Assembly: GCF_988242995.1 (NCBI RefSeq)
Contig: NZ_OZ547043.1
Strand: one strand, 5' to 3'
DNA length: 64,000 nucleotides
Positions 13,433 to 35,437 of the stretch are shown here, piece by piece. The position numbers and the translations under genes are program-made. Positions within the stretch are counted from its first letter, which is position 1; each line of letters begins with the position of its first letter. The notes beneath the pieces were generated by a model. It did no database searches. It saw only the letters and a program-made list of their open reading frames with translations, and was not told the origin of the DNA.

Positions 13433-14266
13433 GTGAAAAAAACACAGCAAAAAGAAATCGAAAATGTGACAAGTGTCACAGGTGTTCGTCAAATTGAGTT
13501 ATGGCGGCGTGATGATTTACAACACCCACGGTTAGATGAGGTGGCGGAAGAGGTTCCCGTTGCGCTGGTCTACAACGGCATTTCGCATGTGGTGATGATG
13601 GCGTCGCCCAAAGACCTTGAGTACTTTGCGCTCGGTTTTTCGCTTTCCGAGGGGATAATAGAAAGTCCGCGCGATATCTTCGGCATGGATGTCGTTCCTT
13701 CCTGTAATGGTCTTGAAGTGCAAATTGAGCTTTCCAGCCGCCGCTTTATGGGGTTGAAGGAGCGCCGCCGGGCGCTGGCGGGACGTACGGGCTGTGGCGT
13801 ATGCGGCGTGGAGCAACTTAATGACATCGGAAAACCGGTGCAGCCGCTACCGTTCACCCAGACGTTTGATCTCAACAAACTGGATGATGCATTACGTCAT
13901 CTCAACGATTTTCAGCCAGTGGGGCAACTGACTGGTTGTACTCACGCCGCTGTCTGGATGTTGCCATCTGGCGAACTGGTCGGCGGGCATGAAGACGTGG
14001 GTCGCCATGTGGCGCTGGACAAACTGTTAGGCCGCCGGTCACAAGAAGGGGAAAGCTGGCAGCAAGGTGCGGTACTGGTTTCCAGTCGTGCCAGTTATGA
14101 AATGGTGCAAAAGTCGGCGATGTGCGGCGTAGAGATTTTGTTTGCGGTGTCTGCCGCGACCACGCTTGCTGTAGAAGTGGCTGAACGCTGTAATTTGACG
14201 CTGGTGGGCTTTTGTAAACCGGGTCGGGCAACGGTTTATACCCATCCGCAGCGTTTGAGCAATTAA
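13433..14266 (+). CDS. fdhD: sulfurtransferase FdhD (formate dehydrogenase accessory protein)
   Basis: 277-aa ORF divergent from the fdo operon, as in K-12. Confidence 0.95.
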
Positions 14267-14315: not shown

Positions 14316-14996
14316 GTGAATTTTATTATTTTATTTATAAACAAAACGCGTGTAGTGGTGTTAACGCCTGCGCTGCAACCTATTGATGGCGTGGCGGTAA
14401 GTTATATTGATACTGCCGTGGCGTTGGGTAATACCATTAACGAAATGGATAAATATTACACCCAGGAAAATTATAAAGACGATGCGTTTGCGAAAGGGAA
14501 AACGCTGCACCAGACATTCTTAAAAAATATTGAAGCCTTTGAACCTGTAGCAGAATCTTATCATGCGGCGATTCAGGAAATTAACGATAAGCGCCAGCTT
14601 GCGGAACTGAAAAATATTGAACAAAGAGAAGGGAAAACATTCCACTACTACTCTCTGGCAGTCATGATTTCAGCGAAACAAATTAATAACCTGATTTCGC
14701 AAGAGAAGTTTGATGTTGATGCGGCAATGAAGAAAGTCTCTGAACTGGAAACGCTGGTGGCGCAGGCCAAAGAAGCGGATAAAGGCGGTATGAATTTCTC
14801 GTTCATTAATTCGGCAGACCAGTATCAACTCGAGGCTAAAAAATATGTTCGCCGCATCAGAGATAAAGTCCTGTACTCTGACTGGGATAAAGAGCAACTT
14901 CAGGACGCAAACACAAGCTGGATGGTCGACGACTCATTTCCGCGAGCGTTACGCGAGTACAACGAAATGGTCGATGACTATAATAGCCTGCGTTAA
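14316..14996 (+). CDS. yiiG: YiiG-family protein (DUF3829); possibly 5'-shortened compared with the ~351-aa K-12 form as I remember it
   Basis: 226-aa ORF with a GTG start right after the fdhD terminator; in-frame stop at 14292..14294 rules out an upstream extension. Confidence 0.7.
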   Translation: MNFIILFINKTRVVVLTPALQPIDGVAVSYIDTAVALGNTINEMDKYYTQENYKDDAFAKGKTLHQTFLKNIEAFEPVAESYHAAIQEINDKRQLAELKNIEQREGKTFHYYSLAVMISAKQINNLISQEKFDVDAAMKKVSELETLVAQAKEADKGGMNFSFINSADQYQLEAKKYVRRIRDKVLYSDWDKEQLQDANTSWMVDDSFPRALREYNEMVDDYNSLR

Positions 14997-15023
14997 ATGT
15001 TTTTGATTTTGGTGATAAATGCA

Positions 15024-15048
15024 GTGTCGGATGCGGCGCATCCGACAC
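15024..15048. repeat. REP-like palindrome between yiiG and frvR
   Basis: GTGTCGGATGCGGCGCATCCGACAC perfect palindrome with the CGGATGCGGCG core. Confidence 0.45.
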
Positions 15049-15051
15049 AGT

Positions 15052-16800
15052 TCACCCCTTGTGAAGTAACTCCATAAATGCCTCATATCCTGTTAACCCG
15101 GCAATAACCTCTGCCGGATGCTGACACAATACGCTTGCCAGATAGCTAAATATTTTTAGCTCATGACGCGCATCGGCGGCGGCACAGGCGATCAGTACAT
15201 GGTTAACGACTTCGTTATTCACCTCAACCGGTTGGGCGAGGGTAATAAAAAATCCACGAAAACGTCGCTCCTGTTCGCTCCAGCAATGGGGGATGGCGAG
15301 GCGATTAACAATCAGGTTTTCACCTTCGCCTTCGCGGGCGATGATCCGTTGTACTTCATCGGCGGTAATGTGGTGTTGCGTTACTGATTGCGCACATATT
15401 TGCCGGGTAATATGTTGCCAGCTTTCACCGCGTACATTCGAATAATGAAAACTTCCGGGGGCAGAGAAAAAACGCTCCGGCTGCTGGCGAATAAATGCCG
15501 TCGCCAGAAAATGTTTTATTTGTTCGATACCGGCAGCCGTAATGATATTTTTTACGGTGATGTAATTATTTACCGCGTCATCCAGTAAATAATGGCTGTT
15601 GTTAATGATCAATAACGGCTCAATTTCTTCGCGAATGGCAACCAGTTCGCTTACGCTGCGGGCAATAATCACCCGACAATTCAGGACGTCGCGCTCAATG
15701 GCGAGCTGATTAATGGTGGCAATCGCGTTCTGATCAGATAGCAAAATGATCGGCTGGCGTTCGTTTTGATGCCGTTCCAGCGCACAGGCAAAATACAAAC
15801 CGATCAGATCGCTGTCGAAAAGGGGAATATCGAGTTGTTCACGCAGTAGCGTAATAAAGTGCAGACTCATATCAAAGGCCGCAGGCCAGGCGGCTTTCAG
15901 GTTATTCATGCTGCTTTGGCGGTGCTCACCAATCCACACCGGCGCGGCAAGGCAACGTAATAAATGCCCGGTAATATTCTCAACCAGTTGCGTATCAATA
16001 ATATTCAATGACGCAATGCCCGGCACCCTTTGCAGCAATGCCAGCACATTATCGACACAAATAACCTGCGCCTGTTGATGCTGTTTTTCTATCAACCCCG
16101 TCAACGTTCTTACAGCGTTATCACCAAGAAACAGGCCGCTATATTCAACGATCTGTTTTATCTCGCTACCGGGATATTGCGGCCACTCATCGGTCAGTTG
16201 ATTACGCAGGGCGTAAATCGCCAGAATCAGGCTGGAGAGATAATCACCCTGCATCAGCGGCCAGCGGTGTTGGTTGTCGCAGACCGTGGATAATTGCTGA
16301 AGGTTGTCTCGTGTTACGCCCGCCAGAGGAATTAAAAACGGATCTTTGCGCAGCAAGTTCGCCAGCAATATAACGCGTTTCTCTTCTGTCTCATCAATGA
16401 AATGGCCCAAACCGGGGCGACTGGCCAGGCAGCAAGTACGTTCATAACGCTGTTTCAGGCGGGGCAGACGCTCTGCTACCCACGTTTCTGGCAAATTAAG
16501 CGCCGAGGCGAGTTGCGCACGGGGAGTAAAGGTATTCAGTAATAATAGCGCCAGCAGCCGATCGTCGTTATCGTGCTTTTGCAGCAACTGAAAAAAGCTG
16601 CGGCGTTCGAAGATTTCCAACTGATAGCCCGCGTTACCACTGGCGGAAATGCGGGCTTTGCCGTTAAGGGTAAAGTTGAGATAGTCAATATCACGCAGGA
16701 TGGTCCTGCCTGAAACGCCAGTCTGTTGCGCCAGCTCGCCAGGCGTGCGCGGCTGTTGCTCAAGGAGATCGACAATCTTTAACTGGCGTTCGTTTAGCAT
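15052..16800 (-). CDS. frvR: frv operon transcriptional regulator
   Basis: 582-aa ORF; N-terminal HTH; conserved position. Confidence 0.9.
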   Translation of the reverse strand: MLNERQLKIVDLLEQQPRTPGELAQQTGVSGRTILRDIDYLNFTLNGKARISASGNAGYQLEIFERRSFFQLLQKHDNDDRLLALLLLNTFTPRAQLASALNLPETWVAERLPRLKQRYERTCCLASRPGLGHFIDETEEKRVILLANLLRKDPFLIPLAGVTRDNLQQLSTVCDNQHRWPLMQGDYLSSLILAIYALRNQLTDEWPQYPGSEIKQIVEYSGLFLGDNAVRTLTGLIEKQHQQAQVICVDNVLALLQRVPGIASLNIIDTQLVENITGHLLRCLAAPVWIGEHRQSSMNNLKAAWPAAFDMSLHFITLLREQLDIPLFDSDLIGLYFACALERHQNERQPIILLSDQNAIATINQLAIERDVLNCRVIIARSVSELVAIREEIEPLLIINNSHYLLDDAVNNYITVKNIITAAGIEQIKHFLATAFIRQQPERFFSAPGSFHYSNVRGESWQHITRQICAQSVTQHHITADEVQRIIAREGEGENLIVNRLAIPHCWSEQERRFRGFFITLAQPVEVNNEVVNHVLIACAAADARHELKIFSYLASVLCQHPAEVIAGLTGYEAFMELLHKG

Positions 16801-17870
16801 TAATCCACCTGACGGAACTGGCTAAACGCGTTGACTTTCTCTGCGGTTAAGGTGGTCAGAAAATCCCGTATCAACGTGAGCAGAGCATCGTAATCGGCTG
16901 TTGAAATCATGCCGCTGTTGGCGTGCAGATAACGAGTTGGCAAACACAGCGCGACAACCGGACGCCCGCCGCCCATCACGTTGTAGCGCCCGCCATCCGT
17001 CGCACCGGTTTTCATAGTGGAAAATTGCAGCGGTAAATCATTCTGCGTGGCACAGCTTTTTAACGCTGCTACCAGTTTCTGGTTGGGGAAGTAGCGCTTG
17101 TCAAACAGCATCAGCCCCGGCCCGTTGCCCAGTTTCAGCGGGTATTTAATGTTATCAATGCCTGGAACATCGCCCGCGACAGCGGTATCCAGCACGATCA
17201 CCACATCCGGTTTAATGTGTTCAGCCGAGGTTTGCGCCCCGCGTAGCCCAACTTCTTCTTCCACACTGCCAACGCCATACAGCGTAATTTCGGGGTTATT
17301 CACCGTCTGCAATAGCTCAGCCATCATTGCGCAGCCGATGCGATTATCCAGCGCCTTGCCGACCACTTTATCTTCGCCCCAGCAGGCAAAATTGGCTTCC
17401 GGGCTAATAAAATTGCCAATTTCCACGCCGCGTTTTTCCACCTCTTCGCGACTGTACGCGCCAATATCAATGAACATCTCATCAAATGACAGCGGTTGTT
17501 GCTTTTGCTTTTCGGTTAACGCATGAGGCGCGACGGAACCAATCACACCAGGGATTTTAAATCCCTTGTGTGTGCGTATGGTTACCCGGTGGTTGAGCAT
17601 CGACTGATTCCACCAGCCGCCAATGGTGGTAAAGCGCAGAAAACCGCTCTCGTCGATATGGGTGACCATAAAGCCGACTTCATCCATATGCCCGACAACG
17701 GCAACTTTTGGACCTTTATTCCCCTTGCGGGCAACAAAGCTGCCCAGACCATCAAAGGTGATTTCATTTACGCAAGGTTCCAGCGTGTTTATCAGGATGT
17801 CGCGAACTTCCTGTTCATCGCCGCTGACGGCGCTGGCTTCGCACAACTGTTGCAGTAACTCAATGTTCAT
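16800..17870 (-). CDS. frvX: M42-family aminopeptidase/cellulase-like protein FrvX
   Basis: ORF 16800..17876; internal start MNIELLQQL gives ~356 aa. Confidence 0.9.
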   Translation of the reverse strand: MNIELLQQLCEASAVSGDEQEVRDILINTLEPCVNEITFDGLGSFVARKGNKGPKVAVVGHMDEVGFMVTHIDESGFLRFTTIGGWWNQSMLNHRVTIRTHKGFKIPGVIGSVAPHALTEKQKQQPLSFDEMFIDIGAYSREEVEKRGVEIGNFISPEANFACWGEDKVVGKALDNRIGCAMMAELLQTVNNPEITLYGVGSVEEEVGLRGAQTSAEHIKPDVVIVLDTAVAGDVPGIDNIKYPLKLGNGPGLMLFDKRYFPNQKLVAALKSCATQNDLPLQFSTMKTGATDGGRYNVMGGGRPVVALCLPTRYLHANSGMISTADYDALLTLIRDFLTTLTAEKVNAFSQFRQVD

Positions 17871-19311
17871 GGACAAGCTCCTGTTGCGCAGCTTTGGCTT
17901 TGCGGCGTAACCATAATCCTTTCAGGACGATAATGAATGAAATGTTCAGCGCGAGGCCAATCGCCAGCACCAGATAAAACGAACCTACCGGCGACATCAG
18001 GCCGATCAGCGGGTCAAAGATACCTAAACCTGGCGCCAGACGTTTGATTCCGAAAGCGATCACCAGCACGCCAGTAATGCCGCCCGCCAGCGTATTGGCG
18101 GTAATCATTGGCAGTGGTGCCGCCAGAGCGTAAGGAATAGCCGGTTCGGTCGCGACTGTGGCACCGACCACAATGGCGCTACTGGCGGCTTCTTTTTCCT
18201 GTTGAGTAAACAGCTTGGGCGCAATGAACGTCGCAAGACCCGCCGCGACAGGCGGCATCAGCGCGACAACGCCGACGATGGCGTACCAGTCGTAAATGTG
18301 TTTTTCCAGCAGTGAGAAGCAGAAGAACCAGGCGGTTTTATTGATAGGGCCGCCCATATCGAACGCCAGCATTGCACCGACCAGAAACGCCGCCGCAAAC
18401 TTCATTGACGGAGGAATGGTGTTCAGGAAGTGCAGCAACCCGCCCATGAGGTCGGACATCACCGGTCCGATAACGTAGTAAGTCAGTACGCCAAAAACCA
18501 GCAGAGTAACGAACGGGATCAGCATGGAACCGAGCAGCGGTTGTAATGCTTTGCCAAGGCGCACTTTACGGAACCAGAAGACGAAATAGCCAATCGCCAG
18601 CCCAAGCACCACCGCACCGAGGAAGCCCGCGCCAGACTGGGTGCCGAGCAGGGCTTTGTCGTTCGCCAGATAGCAAACCAGAAACGCCGGAGCGAAAGCG
18701 GGTTTATCGGCAATCGACGAGGCAATATAAGCGCCCATGATGGGGATCATAAAGGTGAAGCCGAGATAACCGATGGATTCAACCACCCAGGTAAACGACG
18801 GCGCGCCTTTCGACATATCGGTATACGGCAAACCGAACTGCACCAGCATGTTGGCAAGCGCCACCAGAATACCGCCACCGATGACAAACGGCAGCGCCGC
18901 AGAGACGCCCGCCATCAGGTGGCTCATTACGCTGCCACTTTGCACTTCCTGTTTGCCGAGCTTCACGCCGCTATCTGCGGCAAAAAATTGTGAGTTTGTC
19001 GGTAATTCACTGAAAATATGGTCGATATTTTTCAGCGCCTGGGAGATGGCAATCTCATAAACCTTTTTCCCGGCAAATCGCGCGCGATCATCACCGCTCA
19101 GGCCACGCCCGGTAGCGAGAATCACGTAATCGGCAGCGGCAATCTCTTCGCTGGATAAGCGGTTTTCGATGCCGCTTGATCCTTGAGTTTCAACTTTAAT
19201 GGTATGACCGAGAGAACGGGCTTTCTGTTCCAGGGCTTCCGCCACCATGTAGGTGTGAGCGATCCCGGCGGGGCAGTTGGTGATCGCGACAATACGTAAG
19301 GATGACTCCAT
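17860..19311 (-). CDS. frvB: PTS fructose-like EIIBC component
   Basis: ORF 17860..19317; N-terminal IIB domain (CPAGIAHTYM) followed by a polytopic IIC domain. Confidence 0.9.
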   Translation of the reverse strand: MESSLRIVAITNCPAGIAHTYMVAEALEQKARSLGHTIKVETQGSSGIENRLSSEEIAAADYVILATGRGLSGDDRARFAGKKVYEIAISQALKNIDHIFSELPTNSQFFAADSGVKLGKQEVQSGSVMSHLMAGVSAALPFVIGGGILVALANMLVQFGLPYTDMSKGAPSFTWVVESIGYLGFTFMIPIMGAYIASSIADKPAFAPAFLVCYLANDKALLGTQSGAGFLGAVVLGLAIGYFVFWFRKVRLGKALQPLLGSMLIPFVTLLVFGVLTYYVIGPVMSDLMGGLLHFLNTIPPSMKFAAAFLVGAMLAFDMGGPINKTAWFFCFSLLEKHIYDWYAIVGVVALMPPVAAGLATFIAPKLFTQQEKEAASSAIVVGATVATEPAIPYALAAPLPMITANTLAGGITGVLVIAFGIKRLAPGLGIFDPLIGLMSPVGSFYLVLAIGLALNISFIIVLKGLWLRRKAKAAQQELVHEH

Positions 19312-19321
19312 CGCCACGTCC

Positions 19322-19768
19322 TTATGAGCTGAGGGTTTGATTTAACAAAGCAAGCACCTGGTCGGCGTCGCCCTGTCGCAGTTGGTTGATAAAATCCTGG
19401 TGGATAATTTTGCGACACAGTGTGCCGATGATTTTGACCTGATCCTCTTCGCCACTTTGCGGCACGCCGAGGCAGATCCAGCAATTGACGTCTTCGCCGT
19501 CGCTGGCTTTCCAGTCAATGGCCTGCGCTTTGCGGGCGAATAACACGAACGGTTGTTTAACGCAGGCGCTTTTACCGTGCGGCACGGCGATGCCGGAACC
19601 AAAACCGGTGGAGTGCATTTTTTCGCGCAGCAGCAGAGTTTGCAGGAACTGGTGTGAGTCGGTGATAAAACCGTTTTGTAACGCCATTGTCGCCAACTGC
19701 TTCAGAACGGAATAAGTGCCATTGCCCTGAATATTCAGGTCAATACAGCTTGCAGTAAGTGCTGCCAT
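19322..19768 (-). CDS. frvA: PTS fructose-like EIIA component
   Basis: ORF 19322..19897; the internal Met (MAALTAS...) gives 148 aa; EIIA(Fru)-like. Confidence 0.9.
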   Translation of the reverse strand: MAALTASCIDLNIQGNGTYSVLKQLATMALQNGFITDSHQFLQTLLLREKMHSTGFGSGIAVPHGKSACVKQPFVLFARKAQAIDWKASDGEDVNCWICLGVPQSGEEDQVKIIGTLCRKIIHQDFINQLRQGDADQVLALLNQTLSS

Positions 19769-20244
19769 TATTGGATTCCATGAAAAAATATTATAGTTAA
19801 TTGTAACGGCGGGGCGGTTTTGTGATGAGCGCGGATATGTCGTGAAGTCGTGACAATATAAGGCAGAGTGAAGGATAAATTTTGCGGTGTAAGGCACATA
19901 TTGATGGGCAAAATAAATGCAGTGAATAAAAAATCATTATTTAATGATGTTGTGAATGTTTAACTGCCGCACATGTTTTGCAGCAAGGTTATTTATATTT
20001 GTGGCTTATGAGTCAGCGTGAATTATATCTAATATTTTTTACGATATTTAGTTAAAAACGGCACTATTGTTATATTCCTCACGTTCCAGGAAATCAGCGG
20101 ATTTACTCATATTATGCAGCGGGATACTATCCATCGGCCTGCTGAAGTTGGATTAAAAATTCGAAAGTGCACACCTTATATTTCTCTATATACGTATTCC
20201 TTTTGGAAAGCGTAGGGTCTCTTTTATTTCAGGGAACGTAAATA

Positions 20245-21639
20245 ATGAAAAAATCGACATTATCTTTAGTCATCGGTTTATTATTGGCATGTAGTACCGG
20301 AATGGCAAAAACACAGCATTTAACGCTGGAACAACGCATGGCATTGCTGGAAGAACGCCTGGAAGCGGCAGAAATGCGGGCAGCAAAAGCAGAGGGGCAG
20401 GTTAAACAGCTTCAGACACAACAAGCCGCCGAGATCCGCGAAATTAAAACCGCACAGGGCAACACGCCGGTAAACGGTCAATCAACGACGGAGTCAGAGA
20501 AGAAAAACGCCACCTCGCCTAATCTCCTGCTTTCAGGGTATGGCGATTTAAAAATCTACGGCGACGTAGAATTTAATATGGATGCAGAAAGTAATCATGG
20601 CCTGCTGGCAATGACCAACGCTGATGTGAATAGCGATCCCACTAATGAACAGTGGAATCTCAATGGTCGTATTCTGTTAGGTTTTGATGGTATGCGAAAA
20701 CTGGATAATGGTTATTTCGCCGGGTTCTCCGCACAACCGCTGGGGGATATGCACGGTTCAGTGAATATTGATGACGCGGTATTCTTCTTTGGGAAAGAGA
20801 ATGACTGGAAGGTCAAAGTCGGTCGTTTCGAAGCCTATGATATGTTCCCGCTGAATCAGGATACCTTTGTTGAACATTCCGGTAATACTGCGAACGATCT
20901 TTATGACGATGGCAGCGGTTATATCTATATGATGAAAGAGGGCCGCGGGCGCTCTAACGCTGGCGGTAATTTCCTCGTCAGCAAGCAACTCGATAACTGG
21001 TATTTTGAATTAAACACGTTACTTGAAGACGGAACATCTTTATATAATGACAGTAATTATCATGGACGCGATATGGAGCAGCAGAAAAATGTTGCTTATC
21101 TGCGTCCAGTAATTGCCTGGTCGCCGACGGAAGAATTCACCGTTTCCGCAGCGATGGAAGCGAACGTGGTAAATAATGCTTATGGTTATACCGATAGCAA
21201 GGGTAATTTTGTCGATCAGTCCGATCGTACCGGCTATGGTATGAGCATGACCTGGAATGGCCTGAAAACGGATCCGGAAAATGGCGTCGTGGTTAATCTT
21301 AATACCGCCTATTTAGATGCTAATAATGAGAAAGATTTCACTGCCGGGATTAACGCGCTGTGGAAACGTTTCGAGCTGGGTTATATCTACGCGCACAATA
21401 AGATTGATGAATTCAGCGGTGTAGTTTGTGATAACGACTGCTGGATTGATGATGAAGGGACGTACACCATTCACACCATTCATGCGTCTTATCAGTTCGC
21501 TAATGTGATGGATATGGAGAACTTTAATATTTACCTCGGGACGTATTACTCCATTCTGGATAGCGACGGTGATAAAAAACACGGTGATGATACTGATGAC
21601 CGTTACGGGGCACGCGTTCGCTTTAAATACTTCTTCTGA
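20245..21639 (+). CDS. putative outer-membrane beta-barrel porin with N-terminal coiled-coil; strain-specific, not in K-12 at this locus
   Basis: 464-aa ORF; signal peptide MKKSTLSLVIGLLLACSTGMA; coiled-coil LEQRMALLEERLEAAEMRAAKAEGQVKQLQ; alternating amphipathic segments; C-terminus RFKYFF typical of OM beta-barrels; SD AGGGAA upstream; AT-rich 5' flank. Confidence 0.75.
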   Translation: MKKSTLSLVIGLLLACSTGMAKTQHLTLEQRMALLEERLEAAEMRAAKAEGQVKQLQTQQAAEIREIKTAQGNTPVNGQSTTESEKKNATSPNLLLSGYGDLKIYGDVEFNMDAESNHGLLAMTNADVNSDPTNEQWNLNGRILLGFDGMRKLDNGYFAGFSAQPLGDMHGSVNIDDAVFFFGKENDWKVKVGRFEAYDMFPLNQDTFVEHSGNTANDLYDDGSGYIYMMKEGRGRSNAGGNFLVSKQLDNWYFELNTLLEDGTSLYNDSNYHGRDMEQQKNVAYLRPVIAWSPTEEFTVSAAMEANVVNNAYGYTDSKGNFVDQSDRTGYGMSMTWNGLKTDPENGVVVNLNTAYLDANNEKDFTAGINALWKRFELGYIYAHNKIDEFSGVVCDNDCWIDDEGTYTIHTIHASYQFANVMDMENFNIYLGTYYSILDSDGDKKHGDDTDDRYGARVRFKYFF

Positions 21640-21647
21640 TGAAGGCG

Positions 21648-21676
21648 CGGTGCTGGATATTTTCCGGCACCGCAAC
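21648..21676. terminator. putative bidirectional terminator between the convergent porin gene and rhaM
   Basis: GCGGTGC TGGATATTTTCC GGCACCGC inverted repeat. Confidence 0.45.
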
Positions 21677-21679
21677 TCA

Positions 21680-21994
21680 TTAAGGCAGGTAAAACACGTC
21701 TTGCAGCTCGCTACTGACTGGGCTGTTATCCGGGTTAGCTGGCATAACGTCGGTCATATATTTCCACCAACGTTGGCAAACATCAGTACTGGCTACCGCA
21801 TTCCACCGTTCTTCAGATTCAATCTCTACTGTGGCAAATAGCAGATTACGCGCTTTGTCGAGGTAAATGGCGTAGTTATGCGCACCGTGAGATTTCAACA
21901 CTGCTTCCAGTTCCGGCCAGATGGGATTATGCCGATGCTGATACTCTTCGTGGGCGTCGGGGTTAACCTGCATGACAAAGGCTTTGCGGATCAT
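21680..21994 (-). CDS. rhaM: L-rhamnose mutarotase
   Basis: 104-aa [37 protein letters not shown]; conserved position beside rhaD. Confidence 0.95.
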
Positions 21995-22003
21995 GTTTGC
22001 TCC

Positions 22004-22828
22004 TTACAGCGCCAGCGCACTGGCGAGTGGTGTAACGCCGAAACGCTGGCCGAGCGCTATCAGCTCTTCACGGCTGATGGTCTGTTTCATGCCGCCCATC
22101 GAATAAACCTTCACTAATACTTGTGCTGATTTTTCTGCGGTGTCGATTAAACCGAATGTTTCATCCAGTGTCGGACCGCTGCCGAAGACGCCGTGGAAGG
22201 GCCACAACACCAGCGAATGTTTTTGCATTTCCTGTGCGGTCGCCTGGCCGATTTCGTCCGTGCCGGGCACCATCCACGGCAAAATGCCGACGCCATCCGG
22301 GAACACTACCAGACATTCGGTGCTGCCTTCCCACAGTTGGCGAGTGAAGACCGCGGTGTCGTTTTCCAGTACGTAGGTAAGGGCGATCAGGTTGGTGGCA
22401 TGGCAGTGCATGATCACCCGATCTTTACCGTTGGTGGCTTTAATGCGTTCGCAATGAGAGAGGAAGTGCGCCGGAAGTTCAGAGGTTGGAACGGCTTCGT
22501 GAGTTAGCCCCCAGAGAATGTGGTAGCCCGCGCCGTCGCTGTCGACTTTTACGACGCCTAAGTTAGCCGCAGGATCAAGCTGGACGTTGCGGAAGAATTT
22601 GCCGGAGCCGGTGACAATAAACGGTGTATTTGCCAGTAAAGGCATGGGCTGGCTGAGCGGGATATAGCGCGGTTGTGCATGAAAGTTGTCGTGATAAGGC
22701 GCGATATCGGCGTCATCCAGGCGTAGCGTCAGGTTGCCGCCGTTGCGCTCGTCCCAGCCTTTCAGCCAGGCGTCGGTGGTGGCTTTAATCATTCCCTGGA
22801 CAAACCAGGACTGAGTAATGTTTTGCAT
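22004..22828 (-). CDS. rhaD: rhamnulose-1-phosphate aldolase
   Basis: ORF 22004..22918; the internal Met [25 protein letters not shown] gives 274 aa. Confidence 0.95.
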
Positions 22829-22852
22829 GTTCTGTGTTCCTGTAAATTCGGT

Positions 22853-22907
22853 GTTGTCGGATGCACGATCTGTCGGCCGAATAAGGCGCTCGCGCCGCAT
22901 CCGGCAG
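22853..22907. repeat. REP element in the rhaA-rhaD intergenic region
   Basis: TGTCGGATGCACGATCTGTCGGCCGAATAAGGCGCTCGCGCCGCATCCGGCA resembles the REP consensus. Confidence 0.6.
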
Positions 22908-34666: not shown

Positions 34667-34724
34667 TTTTCCTTGCCATAGACACCATCCCTGTCTTCCC
34701 CCACATGATGTGGGGGTTTTTTTT
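34667..34724 (+). ncRNA. cpxQ: possible CpxQ sRNA (derived from the cpxP 3' UTR) with a strong intrinsic terminator
   Basis: cpxP 3' UTR ends in the perfect hairpin CCCCCACATGATGTGGGGG plus T8; this hairpin could instead be the left-end hairpin of the adjacent IS200. Confidence 0.4.
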
Positions 34725-35405
34725 GTGCACAGAAAACCCCCAGCTAGGCTGGGGGTTCCGGAAAGCTTTCAGCTTTGAGCCAGTTATTAAAACCCCTTTT
34801 GATTTGTTAAAACACCTTGCGGTCTGGCAACTGCAAGTGTCAAACAAGAAATCAAAAGGGGGTCCCAATGGGGGACGAAAAGAGCTTAGCGCACACCCGC
34901 TGGAACTGTAAATATCACATAGTTTTTGCGCCGAAATACCGAAGACTGGCGTTTTACGGAGAGAAGCGTAGGGCGATAGGCAGTATTTTGAGAAAGCTGT
35001 GTGAGTGGAAAAGCGTACGGATTCTGGAAGCAGAGTGCTGCGCAGATCATATCCATATGCTTGTGGAAATCCCACCCAAAATGAGCGTATCCGGCTTTAT
35101 GGGATATCTGAAAGGGAAAAGCAGTCTGATGCTTTACGAGCAGTTTGGGGATTTGAAATTCAAATACAGAAACAGGGAGTTCTGGTGCCGAGGGTACTAT
35201 GTCGATACGGTGGGTAAGAACACGGCGAAGATACGTGACTACATAAAGCACCAGCTTGAAGAGGATAAAATGGGGGAGCAGTTATCGATTCCATATCCGG
35301 GCAGCCCGTTTACGGGCCGTAAGTAACGAAGTTGAATGCAAATGTCAGATCGTATGCGCCTGTTAGGGCGCGGCTGGTAACAGAGCCTTACAGGCGCATT
35401 TGAAA
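34700..35405 (+). mobile_element. IS200-like insertion sequence (IS200/IS605 family); boundaries approximate
   Basis: single ~152-aa Y1 transposase ORF flanked by structured ends (hairpins AAACCCCCAGCTAGGCTGGGGGTT on the left, TGCGCCTGT...ACAGGCGCA on the right); no terminal inverted repeats, as expected for IS200; intergenic region is about 0.7 kb longer than my recollection of K-12. Confidence 0.7.
34868..35326 (+). CDS. tnpA: IS200/IS605-family Y1 (HUH) transposase TnpA
   Basis: ORF 34817..35326; start MGDEKSLAHTRWNCKYHIVFAPKYRR; HUH motif HIHMLV; catalytic Tyr near the C-terminus. Confidence 0.85.
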   Translation: MGDEKSLAHTRWNCKYHIVFAPKYRRLAFYGEKRRAIGSILRKLCEWKSVRILEAECCADHIHMLVEIPPKMSVSGFMGYLKGKSSLMLYEQFGDLKFKYRNREFWCRGYYVDTVGKNTAKIRDYIKHQLEEDKMGEQLSIPYPGSPFTGRK

Positions 35406-35407
35406 AA

Positions 35408-35437
35408 CCTCCGGCTATGCCGGAGGATATTTATTTA
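35408..35437 (+). terminator. weak hairpin with an AT-rich tail upstream of fieF
   Basis: CCTCCGGCTATGCCGGAGG followed by ATATTTATTTA. Confidence 0.35.

Follow-up and report, generated by a model that had tools for sequence, protein, structure and literature searches.

A probable orphan chromosomal orthologue of the raffinose glycoporin RafY beside rhaM in Escherichia coli

RafY, the subject of Ulmke et al. 1997 and Andersen et al. 1998, is reportedly the glycoporin of the raffinose plasmid pRSD2 and reportedly conducts about 2.9 nS in 1 M KCl. PMC4827864 cites Andersen et al. 1998 for RafY as a general diffusion pore, and for the RafY family (TCDB 1.B.15) 16 strands are predicted by the TCDB authors. 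The RafY-family protein GlyP is an alternative porin in Klebsiella pneumoniae and alters fitness in porin-deficient, carbapenem-resistant strains of that species (bioRxiv 10.64898/2026.03.29.715108), lactulose induces a RafY homologue of Salmonella (PMC13304739), and the copy in E. coli O157:H7 was named rafY2 (PMC4809568). In the literature searched we found no experiments on the chromosomal porin copy and no papers linking a glycoporin to rhaM. Here we describe such a porin gene in a 64,000-nucleotide stretch of contig NZ_OZ547043.1 (RefSeq assembly GCF_988242995.1; hereafter the window). We consider it highly probable that the gene is an orphan chromosomal orthologue of RafY, ancestral at its site, which would form a wide pore made with the aid of CRP. 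About half of E. coli genomes carry it under an existing and correct annotation, as a member of a described family; what we add is its apparent loss from K-12, the raffinose genes as its likely lost partners, and a conserved, probably CRP-dependent promoter.

The original prediction of an open reading frame between frvA and rhaM proves right: the porin gene ('rafY2'; 20245..21639, plus strand) is a 464-aa ORF that matches Pfam Porin_8. Its left neighbor frvA (PTS IIA; 19322..19768, minus strand; annotated likewise in the nearest genome) is divergent, and its right neighbor, annotated as rhaM (L-rhamnose mutarotase; 21680..21994, minus strand), is convergent. The divergent intergenic region (19769..20244), which carries the predicted porin promoter, is AT-rich as had been noted, with 35.7% GC vs. 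51.3% for the window; the porin gene has 45% GC and its neighbors 50–56%. Between the convergent stop codons of porin and rhaM lies a GC-rich hairpin (21647..21673) identified by folding energy: the 49 nt at 21637–21685 fold with a dG of −27.9 kcal/mol (z −7.3 against shuffles), and there is no T-run. Elsewhere in the window, the ORF at 4774–6588 gave zero matches in Pfam, NCBIfam, PDB, and PHROG searches and a poor AlphaFold2 model (pLDDT 37.6).

Family membership is well defined. Porin_8 (PF16966) matches residues 104–464 over the whole model (1–372/372; E 2.2e-154, 514 bits), and 44/44 aligned relatives match it too. RafY, one of the families that the original prediction listed for checking, is therefore the answer, while two others drop out: LamB (PF02264; TCDB 1.B.3) yields zero matches even at E ≤ 10, and OprB (PF04966) is neither an HMM match nor the closest fold. 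PDB sequences of LamB or ScrY likewise give zero matches at E ≤ 10, and the 18-stranded barrel of those proteins is not what the model predicts. Identity to plasmid RafY, encoded in a rafR-rafA-rafB-rafD-rafY cluster, is 78% over 450 aa and unevenly spread, reaching 87–92% for residues ~150–464 and 52–60% over the first ~120 residues, so the coil and first strands may behave differently. The features of the RafY family, namely an outer-membrane beta-barrel, a signal peptide, and a C-terminal aromatic/Phe beta-signal, are all present. Linkage to raffinose genes, found for the orthologues of Klebsiella sp. B345 and two Enterobacter genomes and missing for the window gene, is a contextual feature of the family and not a sequence-defining one. 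The family is further marked by large pores for general diffusion that reportedly admit raffinose, stachyose, and maltodextrins and complement lamB/scrY. Other searches with the porin returned only noise matches on the coiled coil (NCBIfam), nothing (PHROGs), or no Porin_1 or Porin_4 match (Pfam). A phmmer search of the PDB sequences likewise turned up no relatives, which suggests that the RafY family is without a solved structure.

The predicted architecture follows the same pattern and upholds the earlier description of an outer-membrane carbohydrate porin whose N-terminal part forms a coiled coil in the periplasm. A cleavable signal peptide (residues 1–21; 20245..20307, plus strand), also part of that description, was read heuristically from MKK, a hydrophobic core, and STGMA/KT (slash, predicted cleavage), giving a computed mature form of 443 aa, 50.0 kDa, and pI 4.6. 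This A-x-A-type site is kept in relatives (TGFA/KT, SAVA/KN, AAWA/QT), and, judging by the primer, the clone of the K. pneumoniae homologue begins at the corresponding mature N-terminus. We rejected a lipoprotein: LLLAC16 fits the PROSITE lipobox, but Cys16 is limited to E. coli chromosomal alleles, and relatives in other genera instead have LLLVAN...A/K with an ordinary signal-peptidase-I site. The coiled coil spans residues 25–71 in ~7 heptads (20317..20457, plus strand); AlphaFold2 places a helix at residues 28–71 with block-mean pLDDT of 81–88 for residues 31–70, and a/d positions are hydrophobic or small in 79% of cases in one register vs. ≤43% in the other six. Resemblance to the coil of ScrY, also proposed originally, is plausible at the family level: Sugarporin_N (PF11471) matches residues 27–52 of the window protein weakly (E 0.08), and of the 44 relatives 5 match at E ≤ 0.001, the best at 5.9e-7, and 15 at E ≤ 0.1. 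A flexible, low-complexity linker follows (residues 72–97; 20458..20535, plus strand), with pLDDT < 50 for residues 74–97 and with length and sequence that differ between homologues. The remainder (residues 98–464; 20536..21636, plus strand) is predicted, in a monomeric AlphaFold2 model, to be a 16-stranded beta-barrel with a conserved long inward loop (~195–240), a CxxxC loop (C395, C399), and the beta-signal ...RVRFKYFF.

The gene is absent from K-12; its presence there in synteny had been named as evidence against the original prediction. In MG1655, frvA and rhaM are adjacent, as had been stated, across a spacer of 300 bp only. The blastn alignment of the window to K-12 stops at 19903 and restarts at 21679, close to the earlier 19898–21680, and 1778 bp of the window (19901..21678) are replaced by an unrelated AT-rich 167 bp. 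Local alignment of this filler to the 1778-bp segment covers 13 nt only, and a search for its source found no similarity in 60-odd other loci compared. The label "strain-specific" does not fit: 2544/5426 complete E. coli genomes (47%) have the porin beside rhaM, annotated "carbohydrate porin", and 2826/5426 have the empty K-12 allele. Carriers come from lineages that are not related to one another, with BL21, O157:H7, and strain uk_P46212 among them. The porin ORF is intact in 4/4 E. coli alleles compared, and dN/dS among alleles is 0.04–0.06 (dS up to 0.18), so the gene is maintained. The sole IS1 at the junction, in strain HS30-1, mediates a porin truncation and is linked to deletion and not insertion; in the window, no mobility genes or repeats flank the porin.

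Comparison across genera suggests that the porin has long occupied this site. It adjoins rhaM in at least five genera besides Escherichia, with examples in Citrobacter, C. rodentium, Kluyvera, Klebsiella, Pseudocitrobacter, and Superficieibacter, and its divergence parallels that of the neighboring rha genes (Citrobacter vs. window: porin 84%, rhaM 88.5%, rhaB 84%; Klebsiella vs. window: porin 74.7%, rhaM 75.0%). K-12 therefore appears to have lost the porin, which was apparently not gained elsewhere; the junction comparison proposed with the original prediction thus points to loss and away from the insertion that it had assumed. In Klebsiella sp. B345 and the two Enterobacter genomes, rafR-rafA-rafB lie directly beside the orthologue, and the E. 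coli copy therefore appears to be an orphan rafY whose lost partners are the raffinose genes. Remnants of rafR/A/B/D and of the HTH-cupin gene known from Citrobacter were sought in the 600 bp upstream (tblastn, E ≤ 10), and none was found, nor any raf gene or remnant anywhere in the window, where the sole RafR-like match (24% identity) is cytR.

Putative promoter elements and a translation signal upstream of the gene are also conserved. These include a CRP-like site, TGTTA-TATTCC-TCACG (20068..20083), a −35-like hexamer TTTACT (20102..20107) at a fixed 18-nt distance from it, a −10-like hexamer TACTAT (20125..20130) after a 17-nt spacer, and a ribosome-binding site AGGGAA (20231..20236) 8 nt before the ATG, all on the plus strand. 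Both CRP-like half-sites are invariant across all 17 orthologous loci compared, which represent 8 genera, with only the 6-nt spacer varying; TTTAC is kept in 15/17 loci; and in an anchored, ungapped comparison 16/17 loci, all except Klebsiella B345, have TAnnnN at the −10 offset. The ribosome-binding block TTTAT(T/C)T(C/A)(A/T)(A/G)GG(A/G)(A/G) precedes the ATG in all genera and in plasmid rafY, upstream of which the CRP-type promoter is absent. A start predicted near 20137 would center the CRP-like site at about −61.5, a spacing that fits a class I CRP-dependent promoter, and we consider the conserved promoter probably CRP-dependent. The site has two mismatches to consensus, one of them at a key G, and two-mismatch matches in the window are at chance level (25 found vs. 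25.5 expected), so another regulator could bind it. An alternative identity for the conserved 17-mer, an operator for the LacI-type RafR, was rejected since it is absent from the rafR-rafA promoters of the plasmid, Klebsiella, and Enterobacter loci. A generic promoter scan gave a weak site at 20153–20182, of below-chance frequency, and we prefer the elements conserved across genera.

Together, these observations suggest the following model, in which the most likely function, by analogy with RafY, is that of a catabolite-controlled wide oligosaccharide pore. The porin would be an ancestral occupant of the frv/rha junction in Enterobacteriaceae, with rafR-rafA-rafB adjoining in some genera; Escherichia and Citrobacter would have retained it alone, and some half of E. 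coli strains, K-12 among them, would have swapped it for 167 bp of unrelated DNA. Transcription would most likely start near 20137 from a weak promoter with cAMP-CRP bound at about −61.5, so the pore would be made under carbon limitation. The precursor would be exported by Sec, with probable cleavage after Ala21, and BAM would put the 16-stranded barrel, probably trimeric like its structural neighbors, into the outer membrane via the C-terminal ...FKYFF signal, leaving the ~47-residue coiled coil to hang into the periplasm from its flexible linker. Through this wide channel, presumed like RafY to have no binding site, di- to heptasaccharides (raffinose, stachyose, sucrose, and maltodextrins) could cross the outer membrane, as could other solutes too large for OmpF/OmpC.

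The original prediction had instead proposed a substrate-specific channel tied to frv or rha, a link that we consider unlikely given the report of RafY as a general diffusion pore and the raffinose genes that accompany the porin elsewhere. A channel feeding the cryptic Frv PTS would parallel ScrY with the sucrose PTS and BglH with the beta-glucoside PTS, porin-PTS partnerships that are established for scr and bgl, and frvA and the porin do diverge from one common spacer in the window and in two Enterobacter genomes. However, frv is kept without the porin in the K-12 allele (2826 genomes), frv is missing from the ~7 kb that were read on the upstream side of the porin in Citrobacter and Klebsiella, and the characterized family member reportedly has no sugar-binding site; we give this reading little probability. 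In Kluyvera genomosp. 1 and strain RIT691, moreover, azlCD and an HTH-cupin gene stand between frv and the porin, so the E. coli adjacency looks like a by-product of deletion. It is more improbable still that the gene belongs to the rhamnose regulon and encodes a porin for, say, oligosaccharides that contain rhamnose. Adjacency to rhaM is kept in at least six genera, but the two genes converge, a stable hairpin separates them, and they are therefore not co-transcribed, other cassettes intervene in K. grimontii and a Pseudocitrobacter MAG, and companion genes, where found, are raf and not rha. K-12 also grows on rhamnose without the porin.

Two further alternatives concern the origin and state of the gene. 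One holds that it is a silent relic of a lost raf operon, unexpressed or useless and heading for deletion as in K-12; no companion genes occur in E. coli, half of the genomes have lost the porin, IS1 has truncated it in HS30-1, and its AT-rich upstream DNA could, by inference, be silenced by H-NS. Against this stand the low dN/dS at appreciable dS, the intact ORFs, the conserved ribosome-binding site, and promoter elements at fixed spacing across genera, and we regard a relic as distinctly improbable. The other, a strain-specific island gene recently acquired by horizontal insertion, would account for the absence from K-12, the lower GC than in neighboring genes, and a close paralogue on conjugative plasmids. 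Yet the gene occurs in unrelated lineages and nearly half of genomes, keeps its position in other genera, where it has diverged as much as the core genes around it, lacks flanking mobility genes or repeats in the window, and is only 78% identical to the plasmid copy, while the HS30-1 IS1 goes with a deletion; of the readings considered here, recent insertion is the one that we find hardest to credit.

An orphan RafY-type wide porin would have consequences beyond this locus. The gene has escaped the classical E. coli literature because K-12 is without it, although BL21, O157:H7, and about half of the strains sequenced produce the porin or are able to, and pores of the RafY family are reportedly wider than OmpF/OmpC. 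Practical questions include scavenging of gut oligosaccharides and the susceptibility of carriers to antibiotics, phages, and colicins. More speculatively, and with a good deal more doubt than confidence, we propose that a CRP-controlled wide porin in half of E. coli is a conditional "third class" of general porin that widens the oligosaccharide limit under carbon limitation and, upon loss of OmpF/OmpC, offers a GlyP-like entry for nutrients and possibly antibiotics, its presence or absence being a trade-off. If so, the long-lived presence/absence polymorphism and deep allelic divergence at the indel would reflect nutrient access vs. exposure to phages, colicins, and drugs.

Known porins differ in how closely they resemble the window protein. 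Classical 16-stranded trimeric porins (OprP 2o4v, Omp-Pst1 4d64, Omp32 1e54, OmpU, and PorB) are 8–14% identical and have no coiled coil, and the barrel domain here is longer (about 365 aa). DcaP of Acinetobacter baumannii (PDB 6eus), at 12% identity, belongs to a different family and prefers dicarboxylates and sulbactam, not sugars. The sucrose porin ScrY is a member of the LamB family (PF02264) and has a Sugarporin_N-type periplasmic coiled-coil N-terminal extension, to which the coil of the window protein may correspond; it reportedly overlaps RafY in function on sucrose and raffinose. RafY itself is the closest counterpart, with a full-length PF16966 match, 464 aa, 78% identity, the same order of signal peptide, coil, linker, and barrel, the CxxxC loop, and the ...FKYFF end. 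Unlike plasmid rafY, the window gene lies on the chromosome with no rafRABD genes beside it and is preceded by a conserved CRP-type promoter of its own, and its product diverges in the N-terminal ~120 residues. GlyP shares the RafY-family barrel but lies in a GlyR-repressed LacI-permease-hydrolase-porin operon, whereas genes for a repressor, a permease, or a hydrolase do not adjoin the window porin; paralogues whose immediate upstream genes encode a LacY-like permease and a GH32 protein are only 52–58% identical to the window protein. By analogy, GlyP nonetheless offers a plausible model for the role of the window porin, that of a reserve pore for scavenging nutrients, with an expression level that becomes important once the major porins are gone.

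The porin gene, an ORF of 464 codons on the plus strand (20245–21639), lies between frvA (19322–19768, minus strand) and rhaM (21680–21994, minus strand) and, as originally predicted, is absent from K-12, where the frvA–rhaM spacer of MG1655 is just 300 bp. Alignment of the window to K-12 stops at 19903 and restarts at 21679, so the interval first proposed for the feature (19898–21680) corresponds to the indel boundaries. The AT-rich upstream region is likewise present, with 35.7% GC in the 476-bp spacer, 45.2% in the gene and 51.3% in the window. Between the convergent porin and rhaM genes is a GC-rich hairpin stem at 21647–21673 (surrounding 49 nt, dG −27.9 kcal/mol, z −7.3). In place of the 1778-bp porin segment (19901–21678), K-12 has an unrelated AT-rich sequence of 167 bp (4957–5123 of the K-12 locus, L004), and this filler has no match in the porin segment or in the 60-odd other loci compared. 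The K-12 state is a replacement, not a clean deletion.

Strain specificity, also proposed at first, does not survive a genome survey. At least 80% of the porin segment is present in 2544/5426 complete E. coli genomes, always adjoining rhaM and with its gene annotated "carbohydrate porin"; carriers include BL21, O157:H7, and strain uk_P46212. The filler occurs in 2826/5426 genomes and falls into two classes (at least 99% identity to the K-12 version in 2137 genomes, 80–90% in 657), and the two alleles together account for 99% of complete E. coli genomes. The chromosomal porin is neither strain-specific nor inserted. A comparative study of O157:H7 had already named this copy rafY2 and noted that it lacks accompanying rafRABD (PMC4809568). 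A 2026 plasmid study found a complete rafABD operon in only 23/45 rafY-positive E. coli isolates (PMC12987596).

The porin is a known, routinely annotated member of the RafY family. Its single strong Pfam match is Porin_8 "porin-like glycoporin RafY" (PF16966, E = 2.2e-154), model positions 1–372 of 372 covering residues 104–464. Among the candidate families named beforehand (OprB, LamB, ScrY, and RafY), RafY is thereby confirmed, and LamB and OprB, like the classical porin families, give no Pfam match; no relative was found in NCBIfam or the PDB sequence set. The porin is 78% identical to the one encoded at the end of an E. coli plasmid sugar cluster (rafR, alpha-galactosidase, permease, invertase, porin), namely the classical rafY-containing raf operon, and 196 plasmids carry similar copies, mostly at ~78% identity. 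Similarity between the porin gene (20245–21639) and plasmid rafY (7925–9319 of the plasmid locus L003) forms a mosaic, with 87–92% amino acid identity over residues ~150–464 and just 52–60% over the first ~120; over residues about 240–330, plasmid RafY is closer to the porin than the Citrobacter orthologue is. This mosaic suggests that plasmid and chromosomal copies may have recombined in the past.

An AlphaFold2 model of the porin from 44 family members (mean pLDDT 81.5, pTM 0.73) contains an N-terminal signal-peptide helix, a single long helix (residues 28–71), a disordered stretch (74–97), and sixteen main beta-strands (100–463), in agreement with the predicted outer-membrane barrel and N-terminal coiled coil. 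The helix has a clean pattern across seven heptads, with 79% of a/d positions hydrophobic or small in the best register vs. at most 43% in the other six. A long loop at ~195–240 bears the residues most conserved in the family (G193, D206, Y228, R236, and the motif YIYMMKEGRGRS). Structural neighbors of the model are Omp-Pst1 (23.6), Omp32 (23.4), V. cholerae OmpT (23.3), PorB (22.9), DcaP (22.8), and V. harveyi chitoporin (22.7), with OprB (19.3), ScrY (18.2), and LamB (18.1) ranking lower. The barrel claim is therefore right, though the barrel is not an 18-stranded one like that of maltoporins. Sugarporin_N matches the porin at an E of only 0.08 and, among the 44 relatives, matches 5 at E ≤ 0.001 and 15 at E ≤ 0.1; judged from these matches, the coiled coil does appear to be related to the ScrY-type extension, and the general idea of a sugar porin in the outer membrane bearing a ScrY-like coil was right.

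The expected cleavable signal peptide can be read by eye (MKK, a hydrophobic core, and STGMA/KT), relatives keep an A-x-A-type cleavage site at the same place, and the predicted mature protein has 443 aa, 50.0 kDa, and pI 4.6. E. coli chromosomal alleles carry Cys16 (20290–20292) in the context LLLAC16S, a match to the lipobox pattern of PROSITE, and orthologues in other genera have LLLVAN at this position. A lipoprotein reading was rejected because the lipobox-like LLAC with Cys16 is confined to E. coli chromosomal alleles. Given the signal-peptidase-I site just after it, the lipobox probably has no bearing on processing, but dual processing of the precursor may occur.

Within a spacer otherwise unalignable across genera, the 16-mer TGTTA-N6-TCACG stands 161–239 nt before the start codon in 17/17 orthologous loci from eight genera, its half-sites invariant and its variation limited to the central six bases. 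It is followed at exactly 18 nt downstream by TTTAC(N) in 15/17 loci and, 17 nt further on, by TAnnnN in nearly all 17. In the window, the predicted CRP-like site occupies 20068–20083 and the predicted promoter elements are TTTACT (20102–20107) and TACTAT (20125–20130). The 16-mer appears to be built like a CRP site (TGTGA-N6-TCACA), and a predicted start near 20137 would put its center at about −61.5, a class I geometry. The conserved T of TGTTA takes the place of a base important in CRP contact, and two-mismatch CRP matches such as this one are at chance level in the window (25 found vs. 25.5 expected). Neither plasmid rafY nor the distant paralogues have the motif upstream; because raf promoter regions lack it, it is not a RafR operator. 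We consider CRP control of the porin an even bet. Elsewhere, a perfect CRP-consensus palindrome, TGTGACAAGTGTCACA, lies at 13465–13480, by alignment just inside the 5′ end of K-12 fdhD, and a perfect CRP palindrome, TGTGATTACTCTCACA, lies at 62343–62358, between genes for a 376-aa protein whose N terminus weakly resembles an IS1-type zinc ribbon (61155–62285, minus strand) and a 517-aa secreted 5′-nucleotidase/UshA-like metallophosphatase (62418–63971, plus strand). Here, at 61193–64000, there is no K-12 alignment beyond metL, which K-12 follows with metF.

Other differences from K-12 include a ~2-kb segment absent from it (4839–6885), within which lies an ORF (4774–6588, plus strand) whose 604–617-aa product, restricted to Escherichia/Shigella, bears the annotation "hypothetical protein" in some 1060 genomes of E. 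coli. It has no match in Pfam, NCBIfam, PDB, or PHROG, and its AlphaFold2 model is unusable (pLDDT 37.6). Its CKSAKDRT (residues 499–506) is a CX5R(S/T) phosphatase-type motif, similar to the active-site sequence CKSGKDRTG in the SopB/IpgD effectors. A ~700-bp insertion between cpxP/cpxQ and fieF (34724–35430) carries an IS200/IS605-family transposase ORF (34817–35326, plus strand; NF033573, E = 2e-42). Two K-12 segments are missing, at ~14355–14362 and ~7627–7653: one, of about 470 bp, includes the 5′ end of yiiG, annotated as a truncated pseudogene in the nearest genome, and the other, of about 600 bp, surrounds yiiF. The block from frvR to rhaD (14355–22906) is 94–95% identical to K-12, BL21, and O157:H7, its only close match being an O158:H23 strain (98–99%), and the window outside it is 97–99% identical to K-12.

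A recent horizontal insertion is contradicted by the frequency of the gene in E. coli, its synteny, and its divergence. Orthologues of 70–84% identity, recovered by exact-protein look-up and by a single scan of species-representative genomes, stand tail-to-tail with rhaM in Citrobacter (several species, C. rodentium among them), Kluyvera, Pseudocitrobacter, Superficieibacter, and Klebsiella. Porin divergence tracks that of neighboring core genes: identity is 84% for the porin, 88.5% for RhaM, and 84% for RhaB against Citrobacter; 82.5% and 86.5% for porin and RhaM against Kluyvera; and 74.7% and 75.0% against Klebsiella. In Kluyvera genomosp. 1 the genes run frvXBA, azlC, HTH-cupin regulator, porin, rhaM, an arrangement suggesting that E. 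coli may have lost the azl/regulator pair, bringing frvA beside the porin. Together, these comparisons are far better explained by vertical descent with later loss in K-12 than by insertion. Identity between BL21 (porin-positive) and K-12 (porin-negative) drops from 99.7% on the left side of the indel to 95.9% on the right, a contrast that points to a putative recombination breakpoint at the indel; porin and filler alleles thus appear to be spread by homologous recombination. In E. coli HS30-1 (L002, 3288–4077), IS1A abuts a 75-bp 3′ porin remnant, and frv and yiiG are gone between fdhD and IS1A, apparently an independent IS-mediated loss distinct from the K-12 allele. In E. coli E69 (L024, CP089930.1, 1–6000), selB, yiaY, and aldB precede the porin in place of frv, so a rearrangement breakpoint lies directly upstream of the porin promoter region. 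The reading of a decaying relic conflicts with the strong purifying selection on the gene and with its conserved predicted promoter: every allele compared is intact, dN/dS is 0.04–0.06 among E. coli alleles (dS 0.06–0.18) and 0.03–0.09 against other genera, and the gene is maintained by selection.

Nothing was found tying the porin to frv or rha, a link that had been suggested from their proximity. That it serves as partner of the Frv PTS is unlikely, as the frv operon and porin do not consistently co-occur and seem to have become neighbors secondarily in E. coli; membership of the rhamnose regulon is also unlikely, the porin and rhaM being convergent and separated by other cassettes in some genera. 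Raffinose genes would instead have been the lost partners. The orthologue at the rhaM junction of Klebsiella sp. B345 has directly upstream a LacI-type regulator, GH36 alpha-galactosidase, and LacY-type permease, 65–78% identical to RafR/A/B of the Enterobacter locus ENT03. In two Enterobacter genomes the raf trio sits just downstream of the orthologue; upstream of it, as in E. coli, the frv genes (frvRXBA) run divergently. The porin is an orphan in E. coli and Citrobacter, and no raf remnant is present upstream of it in the window.

The sequence analysis establishes the porin's family, predicted fold, order of domains, selective maintenance, and genomic history, and we hold the family and history assigned to it with considerable confidence. 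RafY reportedly (Ulmke et al. 1997, summarized in PMC4809568 and PMC12987596) passes stachyose and maltodextrins up to maltoheptaose across the outer membrane. It is described as a general diffusion pore that is not sugar-specific (Andersen et al. 1998, cited in PMC4827864), lactulose induces a Salmonella RafY homologue (PMC13304739), and GlyP of K. pneumoniae, a RafY-family member, benefits the nutrition of porin-deficient strains when de-repressed (bioRxiv 10.64898/2026.03.29.715108). From these reports, we propose that the porin would be a wide pore for oligosaccharides, without sugar specificity, made under catabolite de-repression and probably forming trimers whose coils join in the periplasm; by analogy, such channel behavior is somewhat favored. 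Family members also recur beside sugar genes: in Buttiauxella the porin is last in an ABC-transporter/GH13/GH130 cluster, and in Cedecea, Pseudescherichia, Serratia, and Erwinia members of 50–63% identity come after genes for a permease and a GH32 hydrolase. The RafY family is thus the usual outer-membrane component of oligosaccharide-utilization cassettes, and the permease–GH32–porin layout of these last four genera is that of the K. pneumoniae operon glyR-permease-hydrolase-glyP (bioRxiv 10.64898/2026.03.29.715108).
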